In this document: positions 16,762-59,113 of the stretch, piece by piece
Position numbering within the stretch: position 1 is the first letter of the stretch
Layout of the letters: each line of letters begins with the position of its first letter
From: Bacteroidales bacterium
GTDB lineage: Bacteria > Bacteroidota > Bacteroidia > Bacteroidales > UBA12077
DNA length: 64,000 nt
Direction: 5' to 3'
NCBI GenBank assembly: GCA_028282785.1
Contig: JANQHE010000002.1
Coordinates: 25,149 to 89,148 of the forward strand
Position numbers and translations under genes: made by a program
The notes under the pieces: generated by a model
What the model saw: the letters and a program-made list of their open reading frames with translations, nothing else
What the model was told of the DNA's origin: nothing
Databases searched by the model: none

Positions 16762-16803
16762 TTGAATAATGAACAAGGATTGTTGATTTTTGAATTAAGA
16801 AGT
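16762..16803 (+). repeat. 7-nt-periodic 5' arm of four-helix-bundle cassette 1
   Basis: ttGAata atGAaca agGAttg ttGAttt ttGAatt aaGAagt, with GA at 16764/71/78/85/92/99. Confidence 0.75.
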
Positions 16804-16808
16804 AATAA

Positions 16809-17186
16809 ATGGATAAACATAACTTAGAAGAAAGATTAATTAACTTTGCAGTTCTAATTATTGAATTAATAAATGAAATGCCTGCAAGTAAAGCTGGTAA
16901 TCACTTATCAGGACAATTAGTGCGTTCTGGAACATCTCCAGCTTTAAATTATGGTGAAGCCCAAAGTGGTGAGTCTCGAAAAGACTTTATTCATAAAATT
17001 AAAATTGTTTTAAAAGAATTAAGAGAAAGCTATAATTGTTTAAGAATAATATACAAATCAAGACTGTATAAATCAGAAGATAAGGTTAATAAAGCAATAA
17101 AAGAAAATAATGAATTAATTTCCATTTTTGTAAAAAGTGTTGAAACAGCTCAAAAAAATATGCAAAATAAAAATCGAAAATCTTAA
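16809..17186 (+). CDS. Four helix bundle protein (23S rRNA IVP-like)
   Basis: QLVRSGTSPALNYGEAQSGESRKDFIHKIKIVLKELRES signature. Confidence 0.92.
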   Translation: MDKHNLEERLINFAVLIIELINEMPASKAGNHLSGQLVRSGTSPALNYGEAQSGESRKDFIHKIKIVLKELRESYNCLRIIYKSRLYKSEDKVNKAIKENNELISIFVKSVETAQKNMQNKNRKS

Positions 17187-17233
17187 TTCGTTAATCCCTG
17201 CCTTGCTTTCAGGCAGGCTTGTTCTTAAATCGA
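17170..17233 (+). repeat. 7-nt-periodic 3' arm with an inserted 21-bp palindromic element
   Basis: TC at 17174/81/88/95, then 17223/30; CCTGCCTTGCTTTCAGGCAGG (17197-17217) interrupts AATC|CTTGTTC, the complement of GAACAAGGATT in the 5' arm. Confidence 0.75.
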
Positions 17234-17248
17234 TGAGAATTAATATAA

Positions 17249-18112
17249 GTGGAAAAAGACAAAAAAATAAGCGCTCTATTAAAGTTGTTAGATGATCCTA
17301 ATAATGAGGTTTACAAGCATGTTTCCGAAAACATATTGAAACAAGGTGAGAATATTATCCCTGAACTTGAAAAAGTATGGGAAAAATCATTGAATGCAAT
17401 TCTTCAGGAAAGAATCGAAAACCTTATACAGGAAATTCAGTTTACTTCAACTCAAAATCAGTTAAAAGAATGGAAGGAAACAGGTGCTGTCGATTTATTA
17501 AAAGCTTCTTATTTAATTGCTAAATACCAGTACCCGGATCTAAAATACAATAAAATTTCAGAAGCATTTGACAAGGTTAAACAGGATGCCTGGTTGGAAA
17601 TAAATAATAACTTGACTGCTCTTGAAAAAACCAGGGTATTAAACCATATTCTATTCCAATTACATGAGTTCTCAGGAAATAGCTCAAATTTCTTCGCTCC
17701 TCAGAACTCTTACATAAACCATGTTTTTGAAACTAAAAAAGGAAATCCAATTACCTTAGGTATTTTATATATATCATTGGCGCAAGAACTTGGAATACCT
17801 ATCTATGGAGTAAGCATTCCCCGTAATTTTATTTTAGCTTATATAGACGAACATAACATTGATGATCTTTATGAGAAGGATATTCTTTTCTATATTAACC
17901 CTTATAATAATGGGAAAGTGCTCGGTGAGAGGGAAATTGACTATTTCTTAAAGCAACAAAAAATTGAGCCGAAAAAATCTTATTATTATCCATGTTCCAA
18001 TATTGAGATTATTAAAAAGTTAATTCTAAATTTAATATATTCGTATGAAAAGTTGGGCTACCCTGAAAAGGTATCTAACATGAAGGTTTTATTTAACATT
18101 GTTTCGACATAA
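17249..18112 (+). CDS. SirB1 / transglutaminase-like (Transglut_core2) protein
   Basis: LLKLLDDP, KKGNPITLGILY, FYINPYNNG; GTG start. Confidence 0.85.
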   Translation: MEKDKKISALLKLLDDPNNEVYKHVSENILKQGENIIPELEKVWEKSLNAILQERIENLIQEIQFTSTQNQLKEWKETGAVDLLKASYLIAKYQYPDLKYNKISEAFDKVKQDAWLEINNNLTALEKTRVLNHILFQLHEFSGNSSNFFAPQNSYINHVFETKKGNPITLGILYISLAQELGIPIYGVSIPRNFILAYIDEHNIDDLYEKDILFYINPYNNGKVLGEREIDYFLKQQKIEPKKSYYYPCSNIEIIKKLILNLIYSYEKLGYPEKVSNMKVLFNIVST

Positions 18113-55995: not shown

Positions 55996-56111
55996 TCAAA
56001 TAAAAAATTGTTACAGTTTCTTCGTTTATAAAATACACTTTCAGTAGCAACATGACCGTTTTTCTTTGCTTTTTCGACAGAATTCCTGATTCTAACAACT
56101 CCTTTATTTAA

Positions 56112-57290
56112 TTAATAAATTGTGCCACCAAATATAAAATCATCAAATCCACTTCCTGCTATTTCCAAACCAACAAGAAAAGATTTCCTGATATTTATGC
56201 TTTTTGCTCTTCTTTTTAAGGTTTTTAAATCACTTAATGTAGGTGTTTCTTTTACTTCTATGGCAACATTCTCATCTAAAATAAAATCTATTTCCTGTCC
56301 TGTTTTTTTCGCATAATAATTTAGATTCCCTTTTAAACTTAGTTGGTTTGCTATTGAATTTTCAAAAATAGCACCACTATTGATTTTTGAAAATGTATTT
56401 AAGATTCCATTATCGGAAAAATATAATTTACTTTGAAGAGCAATCTCCCTGTCTTTATTCGTTACAAAAGGTTTTATTAATTTGATGAAATATGTGTTTT
56501 CTAAAAATAATAAATACTCCTTAATTTTATGCCGGTTGATCCCAACAAGGCTTGCAAGCTTTGAGTAATCAATTTTACTTCCAACCCTTGAGCTTAGTAG
56601 TTTTATGACTTTATATAACTCATCTGCATCTGTAAAATCAGATAAAAATAAAATATCAAATTTTATGTATGAATCCGTAATATCTCGTAATAGAGAAAGT
56701 TTATCCTTCACATTTTCTTCCAATACAACTTCAGGGAATCCACCAAAGCGCAAGTATTCCCGATACAATTGCTGATATTTAGATATGAAATTTTTATTTG
56801 TTTTTTTTAGGACAAAAGAGGGCAATTTTGCTCTCTGATTCTTAAAGCGTAAAAACTCACCAAAACTCAATGGCCATAATTCATAAATTCGCTTCCGGCC
56901 TGCCAAGCTTTCACTGAAAGCACCTTTCATATAGAAAGAACTTGACCCACTTACAATAAACTTTACCTCATAATGATCATATACATATTTTATAAAACTT
57001 GCAATATTTTTTATCAGCTGTATTTCATCTAAAAAGATATAAGCTTTTTCATTAAAATCAATTCCTTCTATTTCTAAAGATCTAATTATCTCATCATATT
57101 TATCAATATTGAATATGTGACGAAATTCAATCTTTTCAAGATCCAAAAATACTTTATTATTACTTTCAATTTTGTCAAATAACAAATTTAGGGCCGTTGT
57201 TTTCCCAACCCTTCTTAATCCAGTAATAGCAACAACCTGCTTTATTTCTAAGGATTCTTCTAATTCAGGATATATATCACGGTTTATCAT
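56112..57290 (-). CDS. AAA_14 ATPase with DUF4143 C-terminal domain
   Basis: Walker A GLRRVGKT, Walker B IFLDEIQ, ESLAGR, GGFPE, EIDFIL...AIEVK. Confidence 0.9.
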   Translation of the reverse strand: MINRDIYPELEESLEIKQVVAITGLRRVGKTTALNLLFDKIESNNKVFLDLEKIEFRHIFNIDKYDEIIRSLEIEGIDFNEKAYIFLDEIQLIKNIASFIKYVYDHYEVKFIVSGSSSFYMKGAFSESLAGRKRIYELWPLSFGEFLRFKNQRAKLPSFVLKKTNKNFISKYQQLYREYLRFGGFPEVVLEENVKDKLSLLRDITDSYIKFDILFLSDFTDADELYKVIKLLSSRVGSKIDYSKLASLVGINRHKIKEYLLFLENTYFIKLIKPFVTNKDREIALQSKLYFSDNGILNTFSKINSGAIFENSIANQLSLKGNLNYYAKKTGQEIDFILDENVAIEVKETPTLSDLKTLKRRAKSINIRKSFLVGLEIAGSGFDDFIFGGTIY

Positions 57291-57497
57291 TGGGCTAATT
57301 TACAAATAAATATACTAAATTAAAAATAAATATACATATAATAACACTATTTGTAATTACAAATTACATATAGTTATATTTTATACATTTACTCTATGCA
57401 CAAAGCTATATTTATTGTGGTAAATATTTACTAAATTTTGCAGAACTCTTTTCGTATTTTATAAAAGACAGAACCATAAGAATCGCATCAAAACAGA

Positions 57498-58589
57498 TTA
57501 TCCAAAATAATTTTGATACACTTTTGCAATTCCTACTCGCAAGCTTATCTTATCTTTCCAACCTAAAGAGTTTAATTTTGATACATCCAACAATTTTTGG
57601 GGAGTGCCGTCAGGCTTAGAACCATCCCAATTTATATTTCCTTCAAAACCAACTATTTCTTTTATCAGTTCAGCTAATTCTTTAATGGAAATATCTTTCC
57701 CTGTTCCAATATTGATATGAGTATTCCTTACTTCCTTTTTATCTGCTTTTAAATCTGCGAAGTTAGTATTTTCCATTAAAAATACACAAGCATCTGCTAA
57801 ATCATCCGAATAGAGGAATTCGCGGCGGGGAGATCCAGTGCCCCACAAAGTAATCTGAGTTTTGAGTTTCGAGTTTCGAGTTTCGAGTTTTATACCATAC
57901 TTTAATAACTTATTTTTTATCTCTGTTTCAGATGACTTTCCATCAATTTCTTCGATTGGAAGTTTATCTAAATCTGTTCTAATACCATCCCAGTCATTTT
58001 CCATTAAACATTTACCAAGATGCATTTTGCGGATGATGGCTGGTAAAACATGTGATTTTTCTAAATCATAATTATCATTGGGGCCATATAAATTGGTTGG
58101 CATCACAGAAATAAAGTTTGTACCATATTGTAAATTGTAGGATTCACACATTTTTATTCCAGTTATTTTCGCAATAGCATATGGTTCGTTGGTATATTCC
58201 AAAGTATCTGTTAACAAGTATTCCTCTTTCATAGGTTGAGGACAGTTTTTAGGATATATACATGATGAACCTAAGAATAAGAGCTTTTTGGCCCCACATT
58301 TATAACTAAAATGAATGATGTTGTTTTGAATTTGCAGGTTATCATATATAAATTCCGCACGATAAGTATTATTGGCAACTATTCCACCTACTTTAGCTGC
58401 TGCCAAAAACACATACTCAGGTTTTTCCTTTTCAAAGAATAACTCAACTTGGTTTTGGTCCCGTAAATCATATTCAGGATAAGGAGTAAATACAAAATTG
58501 GAATATCCTTTGGATTCTAAGTTTCTTAAAATGGAGCTACCTACTAATCCTGTATGTCCAGCTATGTATATTTTGTCCTCGAATTTCAC
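57498..58589 (-). CDS. fcl: GDP-L-fucose synthase
   Basis: [52 protein letters not shown] start. Confidence 0.95.
57856..57890 (-). repeat. Heptamer tandem repeat inside fcl
   Basis: (AAACTCG)3(AAACTCA)2 on the coding strand, translated within [12 protein letters not shown]. Confidence 0.85.
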
Positions 58590-59113
58590 TAATTTATCTA
58601 ATTTTTGTTCACTAATATAGATATTTAAAAGATGAAACGTTAATATTGCAAACTTTTTGATCCAAAATTAATTAGTAAACCTAATTTAAATGTCGAAGCT
58701 TTCAAATAATTTAAAATTTGAGCTTCATGCTCAGGTGATATTTCGGATAATGCTTTTAGTTCCACAATTATTTTATTAAAACAATTAAAGTCTGCTCGAT
58801 ACTTTTTACATAATTTCTGCTCTTTGTAATAGATATCAATCTCCTGTTCTCTTTTAAATGGAATACCTTGACTTTTTAATTCTAATTCAAAAGCTTCTTG
58901 ATATACAGTCTCCAAAAATCCACAACTCAACTGTTTATGCACCTCCATCGCTGCACCTATTATTCTATATGCTTCTTCTTTATATTAATTCAACTATGTT
59001 CCTCTATACACGAATTAAACTAAACATCCAATAATTCCACAAATTACGTTAACTACATATATAGACAAATTATCATTTAAAGAAATTAGTGATCATTCGC
59101 GTAATCTGTGGAC
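58575..59113 (-). mobile_element. GxxExxY cassette bounded by 9-nt-periodic inverted arms
   Basis: Minus-strand left arm GTCCACAGATTACGCGAATGATCACTAATT (59113-59084); right arm AATTAGATAAATTAGTGAAATTCGAGGAC (58603-58575); mobility is inferred. Confidence 0.55.
58625..58995 (-). pseudogene. GxxExxY protein (PD-(D/E)XK-like), disrupted
   Basis: YKEEAYRIIGAAMEVHKQLSCGFLETVYQEA...YRADF...IIVELKA...GLLINFG; in-frame TAA before YKEE and premature TAA in LQY*RFIF*. Confidence 0.85.

Follow-up and report, generated by a model that had tools for sequence, protein, structure and literature searches.

Three small genes in a 64,000-nt stretch of a Bacteroidales draft genome (GCA_028282785.1, contig JANQHE010000002.1, positions 25,149 to 89,148; the whole stretch is called the window below) sit at gene junctions within operons, and each is enclosed by inverted arrays of short repeated units. 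Two of them, H1 at site 1 and H2 at site 2, encode four-helix-bundle proteins and have 7-nt units in their arms, and the third, at site 3, encodes a GxxExxY protein and has 9-nt units. We hold, with moderate confidence, that these are promoter-less DNA cassettes with a single gene each, members of two widespread families and bounded by inverted short-unit arrays. The reading draws on the association of such arrays with both gene families, on their periodicity, inverted complementarity and polarity, on the co-orientation of cassette and host genes, on the polymorphism of the occupied sites among relatives and on one 9-bp target duplication, all of which were observed. The three sites had been noticed in a sequence-only reading of the window as genes of about 120 amino acids (aa) held in periodic complementary arms. 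Profile matches and periodicity scores bear this out at all three, and that observation was right and understated. H1 (125 aa) and H2 (118 aa) are intact; at site 3 an open reading frame (ORF) of 102 aa has lost its start. Both families reach far beyond this genome: of 121 sampled Bacteroidota genomes, 92 have four-helix genes and 69 have GxxExxY genes, and both are also found in many other phyla.

Periodicity was scored as the maximum number of identities to the base k positions further on, over 21 comparisons and with k from 3 to 13, in the 130-nt flank on each side of the family match. The controls were 744 other small genes of the source genome (G000 hereafter; G002, G004, G017 and so on are the related genomes compared), a 5.5-Mb draft of 81 contigs with 32% G+C. 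Profile cut-offs were 24 bits for TIGR02436, 33.8 for PF05635 and 35 for TIGR04256. Sites 1 and 2 share one neighbour. Site 1 lies between a nucleoside phosphorylase-like gene (A) and a transglutaminase-like gene (B), and site 2 between B and an unassigned gene (C). H1 (16809-17186, plus strand) matches TIGR02436 (3e-22, 78.9 bits, profile positions 3-108 of 109) and PF05635 (2.3e-12, 47.5 bits). Its upstream arm of degenerate 7-nt units (16754-16807, plus strand) has a lag-7 score of 16/21 and is complementary to 17169-17196 (28 nt, 75%) and to 17218-17241 (24 nt, 71%). These two segments make up the downstream arm (17169-17241, plus strand, lag-7 score 14/21), which is interrupted by a nested 21-nt GC-rich hairpin of the CCTGCC...GGCAGG type at 17197-17217. 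The hairpin is present in G000 and G017, and the orthologous arm of G004 is cleanly without it, as expected of a clean insertion. This pattern family has 126 matches in the genome, 97 of them intergenic, against 2 in shuffled sequences, and such hairpins turn up again in arms belonging to several cassettes of both families. On other contigs G000 has two H1-type copies in decay, which are flanked by arms homologous to the downstream arm of site 1.

H2 (18186-18542, plus strand) matches TIGR02436 (6.2e-28, 97.2 bits, profile positions 1-107) and PF05635 (3.1e-30, 104.9 bits) and resembles by sequence the solved structures 2gsc (1.1e-9) and 2rld (5.8e-5), of which 2gsc is a pentameric relative with five chains. 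The upstream arm of site 2 (18113-18149, plus strand) is a direct repeat of 7-nt units with a lag-7 score of 18/21, and begins directly after the stop codon of the upstream gene. The downstream arm (18558-18589, plus strand, score 14/21) consists of degenerate units complementary to those upstream, the similarity of the unit consensus being 0.55 in the inverted and 0.46 in the direct orientation. At lag 7 the control 95th percentiles are 14 upstream and 13 downstream, so that sites 1 (16 and 14) and 2 (18 and 14) lie above them on both sides. Pairing at site 2 is poor: with the repeat finder no enclosing inverted pair of more than 10 nt was obtained, inspection by eye pairs about 15 of 20 positions, and the arms are unpaired in the minimum-free-energy fold. 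Compared with shuffled sequences, the folds of the whole cassettes have z-scores of -2.46 at site 1, +0.55 at site 2 and -1.33 at site 3. Arm complementarity within the window is thus real but weak, and the window copies are degenerate examples of the pattern. A 453-aa DDE transposase ORF (19774-21135, plus strand; PF13586 9.3e-7, PF05598 6.6e-5) is found downstream of site 2, one gene away; it represents an insertion sequence of its own, for which no link to the cassettes was shown.

Site 3 lies between gmd and fcl, on the minus strand. The GxxExxY / PD-(D/E)XK gene has a family match at 58631-58975 and an ORF at 58640-58948, which matches TIGR04256 (3.2e-39, 133.9 bits) and PF13366 (7.7e-37). 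The ORF begins at profile position 11, and the match in the whole-genome search covers profile positions 2-116 with one in-frame TAA. Since the family match extends upstream through this TAA, the gene has lost its start and about 10 N-terminal codons. The residues G10, E13, Y16, D53, E63 and K65 are invariant across 26 GxxExxY sequences, site 3 included. A predicted model of the protein shows the expected order of helices and strands, with a predicted local distance difference test score (pLDDT) of 72. Its Foldseek matches are all PD-(D/E)XK nucleases, but they are weak (none with E <= 0.001), so that no specific relative, such as a resolvase or a splicing endonuclease, can be named. A sequence search of the PDB with the same protein gave no match. 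The downstream arm (58576-58617, minus strand, 9-nt units, lag-9 score 15/21) overlaps the start codon of fcl and pairs with 59077-59092 (16 nt, 88%), enclosing the gene. The upstream side (59036-59112, minus strand, 9-nt units, lag-9 score 14/21) forms a hairpin of its own, in which 59036-59048 pairs with 59100-59112 (13 nt, 92%) and between which the enclosing arm lies. For lag 9 the control 95th percentile is 14 in both flanks, and the two sides of site 3 score 14 and 15.

The heptamer periodicity of sites 1 and 2 recurs around four-helix genes in general. At the 18 four-helix loci of G000 the lag-7 score averages 14.0 in upstream and 13.7 in downstream flanks (controls 10.8 and 10.4), and lag 7 is the only one raised among lags 3-13. 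Seven of these 18 loci, compared with 1 of the 744 control genes, lie above the control 95th percentile on both sides. A second set consisted of 30 Bacteroidota loci, one each from 30 genomes, with control windows 670-800 nt away. The lag-7 scores there are 12.9 and 12.7, compared with 9.9 in the distant windows, and again only lag 7 is raised; at least one flank scores 15 or more at 16 of the 30, and a few loci have an 8-nt period instead. A wider set was obtained by a pattern scan with an alignment of a closer subset as query, taking one genome per species and the best 80 of 597 relatives, and represents one subfamily with a SIPSNIAEG-type motif. In this set 49 loci have record titles naming groups other than Bacteroidota (about 13 phyla: Clostridia, Acidobacteriota, Proteobacteria, Planctomycetota, candidate-phyla-radiation lineages, Ignavibacteria, Desulfobacterota, Chlorobi, Chloroflexi, Actinobacteria and others), one of the 49 being an artefact with an N-filled flank. 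The signal is stronger in these loci than in Bacteroidota (15.5 and 16.2 against a background of 9.6). Of the 49, 40 have at least one high flank and 27 have two, whereas only 4 of 96 flanks lying 270-400 nt away are high, and many of the arms are near-perfect tandem heptamers. The association of four-helix genes with a 7-nt period is a recurring, non-chance signature of the whole family. Viewed from the arrays, G000 has 29 strict lag-7 segments, among them the upstream arm of site 2. All but one (28) are intergenic and 5 have a four-helix gene within 600 nt, and most of the others are gene-less short-loop hairpins between co-oriented genes.

The two arms of a four-helix cassette are inverted with respect to each other. 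The upstream unit is closer to the reverse complement than to the direct form of the downstream unit at 20 of 22 loci, and at 37 of 41 in the wider set. The complementarity of the arm units also exceeds the 95th percentile of mismatched locus pairs (18 of 22; wider set 31 of 41), which means that each four-helix cassette has its own unit. At best, and without gaps, the arms of the wider set pair over 28 nt on average, with 85% Watson-Crick pairs. Gapped Smith-Waterman alignments of the arms in G000 were noisy, with 4 of 18 loci above the mismatched 95th percentile, and single-linkage clustering of the unit consensus gave one uninformative AT-rich cluster. The arms have a polarity as well. G exceeds C in 26 of 31 upstream arms and C exceeds G in 24 of 30 downstream arms (34 and 36 of 41 in the wider set). 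As the arms are inverted relative to each other, it is the G-rich strand that points inward at both ends, so that the polarity distinguishes inside from outside and does not mark the transcript. Stop codons in all three frames are present in 14 of 31 upstream and 12 of 30 downstream arms when read inward, but in 4 of 31 and 5 of 30 when read outward, the value for composition-matched shuffles being 10-15%.

GxxExxY genes have arrays of another kind. In G000 their flanks show lag 9 only slightly raised (11.2 and 11.9 against 10.8 and 10.6). At 29 Bacteroidota loci the upstream flank has a conserved core, CRCARAG on the sense strand, and the downstream flank the complement of it, with a spacing of 9-11 nt; because this spacing varies, any single lag is only weakly raised. 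From metagenomes 80 loci were kept, of which 54 had full flanks and 53 were analysed, one holding N. An upstream flank holds strict CRCARAG 1.64 times on average, and a downstream flank its complement equally often (1.64), compared with 0.30 far away, and at least two copies are present in both flanks at 22 of the 53 loci. The loci nearest to the site 3 protein have 9-nt units of the CACGAATT type, matching site 3 and an arm remnant at 55966-56001. There are 22 clusters of CRCARAG in G000, as against 2 in shuffled sequences; 21 are intergenic, 3 have a GxxExxY gene within 300 nt, and about 8 are hairpins of about 78 nt with three units per arm. Periodic inverted arrays with 9-11-nt spacing and a conserved core are the family-wide signature of GxxExxY genes. 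The enrichment of periodic complementary flanks that had been expected around both families is thus found in each.

Co-orientation within operons is found at all three sites of the window and is general in G000, where 17 of 18 four-helix and 7 of 8 GxxExxY loci (24 of 26 in total) are co-oriented with both neighbours, as judged from crude ORF-based gene calls. Presence/absence polymorphism, named beforehand as a test in the sequence-only reading, was found at all three junctions: in congeners they are empty, hold only a hairpin, or are filled differently. The gene order A-B-C is kept across the genus. Among 18 loci with both neighbours of the A|B junction, H1 is present in three (G000, G017 and G004); seven have a gap of at most 12 nt, and eight have 56-207 nt without a gene, one of these being a hairpin of the site 1 unit type. 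At B|C, H2 is present in three of 17 loci (G000, G017 and G020), and G004 has a different four-helix gene, 30% identical, in the same place. Five of the remaining B|C loci have a gap of at most 9 nt and nine have 56-219 nt, and gene-less hairpins of the site 2 unit type occupy this junction in G002 and G024. At gmd|fcl, five of 11 loci are filled and six are empty (0-28 nt). The filled loci, together with two genomes in which one neighbour is present, have GxxExxY proteins 36-41% identical to that of site 3. Even the closest relative, G017, whose gmd is 92% identical in DNA, holds a different GxxExxY cassette at gmd|fcl. That cassette is 71% identical in DNA to a GxxExxY cassette found in G000 at another place, which is empty in five relatives. 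As an observation apart, the B|C junction of G007 has about 25 tandem heptamers in a 219-nt intergenic region, with neither a gene nor a complementary arm.

Similar exchanges were seen elsewhere in the genome. Two four-helix cassettes on another contig of G000 are missing from 2 and 4 of five compared genomes, and homologues of both sit at different junctions in those genomes. One junction filled in a relative by a homologous four-helix cassette is a gene-less hairpin in G000, and cassettes homologous to those of G000 occupy other junctions in G004, G016 and G017. The sequence-only reading had found neither a transposase nor a target duplication. The first part stands, in that no recombinase or transposase domain was found in the cassettes; the second does not hold throughout. 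The GxxExxY cassette of G000 that resembles the one of G017, a 497-nt insertion consisting of the gene and a hairpin, has at its ends a 9-bp direct duplication spanning a stop/start junction, and the 9-bp sequence is present once at the empty sites of the four relatives with alignable junctions. It is the only clear sign of staggered-cut insertion at the DNA level. Decay is frequent: 7 of 18 four-helix and 4 of 8 GxxExxY loci in G000 are broken by stop codons or frameshifts.

Two further regions of G000 touch on insertion at junctions. On contig C63 (233000-245000, at about 8640-9350) a divergent GxxExxY gene is accompanied by direct copies of about 55 nt with two small palindromes, and G163 has at that site one copy of about 55 nt, an ATT trinucleotide run and no gene. 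On contig C9 (3000-21000), nearly every gene junction in 18 kb carries an insertion that is missing in relatives, namely a GxxExxY cassette, two four-helix cassettes, a heptamer hairpin, a Y1 transposase gene and inserts of 134 and 208 nt. The Y1 gene is IS200-like (PF01797, 1.8e-25) and forms an intergenic insertion of about 560 nt flanked by GC-rich hairpins.

The surroundings of gmd and fcl hold traces related to site 3. An internally deleted second copy of fcl (55699-55972, aligning to 57499-57772) has a GxxExxY-type arm at its 5' end. This arm remnant (55966-56001, minus strand) aligns to 58568-58602 with a score of 45, the maximum in shuffles being 29. It accounts for one of the two orphan arms of the sequence-only reading (55973-55995), which is the downstream arm of the deleted copy. 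The other (57856-57890, minus strand) is ruled out as an arm: it is coding, lying in frame within the fcl ORF (57498-58589), and its peptide is conserved in relatives. Four tandem heptamers in this run encode a 7-aa-periodic stretch in a loop of about 50 aa of GDP-fucose synthase, and G007 and G008 have this peptide in their Fcl too. In most relatives the loop is of equal length; it is entirely missing in two distant congeners and 10 aa longer in one. The outer unit of the upstream hairpin of site 3 (59093-59112) falls in the last codons of gmd, and genomes that have a cassette at gmd|fcl differ from those that have none in the length of the Gmd C-terminus and in its sequence. A local duplication is visible at 54401-57290, the dehydrogenase gene at 54401-55690 being a near copy of 60138-61427. 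Between the two fcl copies lies an AAA_14/DUF4143 ATPase gene (56112-57290, minus strand) matching the candidate defence family PDC-S01 (7.7e-66).

From these comparisons we infer how insertion proceeds and what the proteins do. The cassettes sit between the genes of an operon, pointing the same way as their hosts, and would be expressed by read-through from the host operon. Their arrays would arise as near-perfect inverted DNA repeats and then decay. The cassette gene would decay too, giving pseudogenes, and internal deletion would leave gene-less hairpins, after which new or different cassettes could re-occupy the same junctions. The all-frame stops of inward-read arms would stop ribosomes entering from the neighbouring gene. 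The four-helix protein, as a pentamer, may bind its own arms, and the GxxExxY nuclease may cut its own, each thereby taking part in movement or maintenance of the cassette.

Several results weigh against the cassette reading. Whole-flank duplex energies over 130 nt are -30.6 kcal/mol, compared with -27.0 in controls, and only 1 of 18 loci lies below the control 5th percentile; such energies are too noisy in AT-rich DNA, and tests of periodicity and unit consensus were used instead. There is no sign of target duplication at four-helix cassettes, where the longest shared word outside the arms is 5.26 against a null of 4.69, and the intergenic spacers of the four-helix empty sites are too diverged to be aligned for the ends. 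No near-identical copies of a cassette were found within G000. Its H1-type copies, which share a common arm type, are only 71-75% identical, and recent movement is therefore not shown. Similarity of proteins and similarity of arm units are only weakly correlated (rho 0.15, permutation p about 0.09 in a Mantel-type test), so that co-travel of arm and gene is shown only for close pairs, which share units. Some junctions have a single arm or a long one-sided heptamer array and no gene, and arrays that pre-existed or grew by themselves would explain gene-less arrays equally well. GxxExxY hairpins occur in both polarities, and some of the genes have complete hairpins on one or both sides and do not lie in a loop, so that a single model with the gene in the loop fails in some GxxExxY cases. 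Finally, no recombinase or transposase is linked to the cassettes.

The strongest alternative is that the cassettes act at the level of RNA. The arms would pair in the operon transcript and be cut by RNase III, which would free the cassette mRNA and insulate the host message, and the RNA structure would be under selection. The PF05635 family is indeed named after ORFs in intervening sequences of 23S rRNA; the arms are co-transcribed with host genes at the 24 co-oriented loci, pair over about 28 nt in well-kept loci, and at site 1 the cassette folds better than its shuffles. This explanation is also compatible with mobility of the DNA. However, a stem kept in the sense transcript should have mismatches in favour of G:U-type pairs, and no sense-strand excess was seen: G:U-type and A:C-type mismatches number 71 and 74, and 44 and 48 in the wider set. 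Site 2 folds no better than shuffles, the inside/outside polarity is the same on both strands and does not single out the transcript, and not one of 190 loci is located within 23S rRNA or next to it. The lack of a wobble bias and the weak stems of old copies fit DNA inverted repeats drifting from a near-perfect state. The sequence-only reading had offered mRNA-level intervening cassettes and mobilised elements side by side. The comparative data favour its mobile half, whereas the half with RNase III stems is unsupported, with no G:U excess and with weak stems in the window. The RNA-stem interpretation is in our view unlikely; processing of a fresh stem in RNA as well would be compatible with the mismatch counts.

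The arrays might instead be binding sites serving the host, for autoregulation, translational insulation or organisation of the nucleoid or of RNA, around accessory genes that are inherited vertically, often lost and not mobile. [quoted passage not shown] It is nevertheless improbable, given that different cassettes occupy the same junction in close relatives, that homologous cassettes occupy different junctions, that one insertion has a 9-bp duplication, that the fraction of pseudogenes is high and that the distribution within the genus is patchy.

Quite improbable is an origin linked to reverse transcriptase, in which an Avd-like four-helix protein and a reverse transcriptase would make the arrays by reiterative copying of a short template of the cassette RNA into DNA. 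H2 does match the bAvd-like model PF22296, although weakly (1.1e-5) and below the cut-off, and near-perfect units, different from cassette to cassette, would be in keeping with a short internal template. According to the portion of PMC10053308 at hand, PF05635 is the commonest family next to the reverse transcriptases of diversity-generating retroelements (DGRs) and is equated with Avd. Yet the single RVT_1 gene of G000 lies on another contig, far from every four-helix locus, neither poly-A nor any other mark of retro-insertion was found, and GxxExxY cassettes have the same architecture with no link to a reverse transcriptase.

Mobilisation in trans by Y1 (IS200-like) transposases associated with repetitive extragenic palindromes (REPs), which would make the hairpins REPIN-like passengers with the small genes merely inside them, is very improbable. 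G000 has four intact and two weaker or broken Y1_Tnp matches, the Y1 gene of contig C9 is itself an intergenic insertion with GC-rich hairpin flanks, and GC-rich REP-like hairpins are nested in cassette arms. On the other hand, the repeats beside the Y1 gene are GC-rich palindromes and not heptamer arrays, and heptamer arms track the four-helix gene over about 13 phyla, whatever the other content of the genomes. Mere coincidence of small genes with simple repeats common in intergenic DNA, which could appeal to the 24 of 29 strict lag-7 segments of G000 lying away from four-helix genes (mostly gene-less hairpins) and to the heptamer excess in bacterial intergenic DNA reported independently in what was available of PMC4692102 and PMC4679880, is hardly credible, being already contradicted by the controls in all sets: both flanks are periodic at a single control gene, scores fall to background at a distance of 270-800 nt in the same loci, unit complementarity is locus-specific, and each gene family has its own unit length.

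If the three sites are cassettes of two families, as we favour, a broader proposal can be made, though only tentatively. Four-helix proteins and heptamer arrays would form one bacteria-wide system, in which the pentamer recognises or helps to generate the 7-nt units on single-stranded nucleic acid and the cassette propagates or maintains itself by means of no known recombinase; GxxExxY proteins with CRCARAG arrays would be a second, analogous class. Apart from this proposal, two very common families with no known function (four-helix proteins outside DGRs, and GxxExxY proteins altogether) acquire in the arrays a defining genomic signature, and one that points to what these proteins act on. PF13366 is listed with 'Unknown' function in the accessible text of PMC3424549, and four-helix genes inserted inside cas operons are described in that of PMC3936711. 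Many short intergenic hairpins and small 'hypothetical' genes of operons, including cas operons, would be recognised as cassette insertions and not as operon members. In PADLOC the cassette proteins have only marginal matches. A published link of either family to periodic flanking repeats was not found in the open literature searched, subscription journals being outside its coverage.

Among known systems, intervening sequences of 23S rRNA with a four-helix-bundle ORF, with examples in Leptospira, Coxiella and Xanthomonas, stand behind the Pfam name 23S_rRNA_IVP. They share with the cassettes the protein family and the arrangement of a small ORF between complementary arms as part of a longer host RNA. 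Unlike them, the cassettes lie between protein-coding genes, as at all three sites of the window. A derivation of the cassettes from rRNA was considered and rejected: 23S rRNA was found in the flanks of none of the 190 fetched loci, and in five complete Bacteroidota genomes the 23S genes are 2866-2888 nt long, which is the length of the model (2925 positions), with none of 56 four-helix matches inside them. In the G000 draft 23S rRNA is not assembled. Rfam gave no match in the window or in 20 related loci. If the broader proposal is true, the intervening sequences of rRNA would just be those cassettes that had inserted there by chance. The DGR accessory protein Avd, judging by sequence, has a fold homologous to that of the four-helix proteins, which is pentameric in the solved relative 2gsc. 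Unlike Avd in DGRs, the cassette genes have no adjacent reverse transcriptase.

REPIN-RAYT systems, as they appear in the available parts of PMC3116915 and PMC3337134, resemble the cassettes in that inverted repeats flank a small gene and also occur as gene-less intergenic hairpins, and in long-term, mostly vertical inheritance with decay; G000 has a genuine example of this type as well. They differ in three ways. The cassette genes match only PF05635 or PF13366 and not HUH/Y1 transposases. Of the four-helix gene there are many copies (18 loci), whereas the REPIN-RAYT gene is single-copy. The cassette arms are tandem 7-nt or 9-11-nt units, cassette-specific in the four-helix case, and not one palindrome. 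Eukaryotic Foldback-type elements and bacterial MITEs (miniature inverted-repeat transposable elements) have terminal inverted repeats made of short tandem sub-repeats in variable number, and many of their copies have no internal coding part. The long inverted ends of short tandem units and the many gene-less copies are common to these elements and the cassettes. In contrast, no transposase is linked to the cassettes, a target duplication was seen once, at a GxxExxY cassette, and the internal gene encodes 110-130 aa.

The closest likeness of the arms themselves is to intergenic heptamer arrays. Those of cyanobacteria are known as short tandemly repeated repetitive (STRR) sequences. The texts of PMC4679880 and PMC4692102, as far as they were available, describe intergenic arrays of TAACTGA and of GGGAATC, respectively, the latter including 70-75 convergent pairs in Xanthomonas; the second also states that no detailed literature on intergenic heptamers existed. 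The word 'S23' is absent from the searched text of both, as is 'intervening' from that of PMC4679880, so that no link to four-helix genes appears there. Like the cassette arms, the arrays described in these texts consist of intergenic tandem 7-nt units, often lie by start or stop codons, are sometimes inverted, and vary in length between close relatives. The link between gene and repeat found here suggests a concrete source for over-represented intergenic heptamers, and, if the broader proposal is true, the four-helix/heptamer system would be the source of the unexplained heptamer excess of prokaryotic intergenic DNA, including the cyanobacterial STRR and the arrays of Xanthomonas and Bacteroidota.

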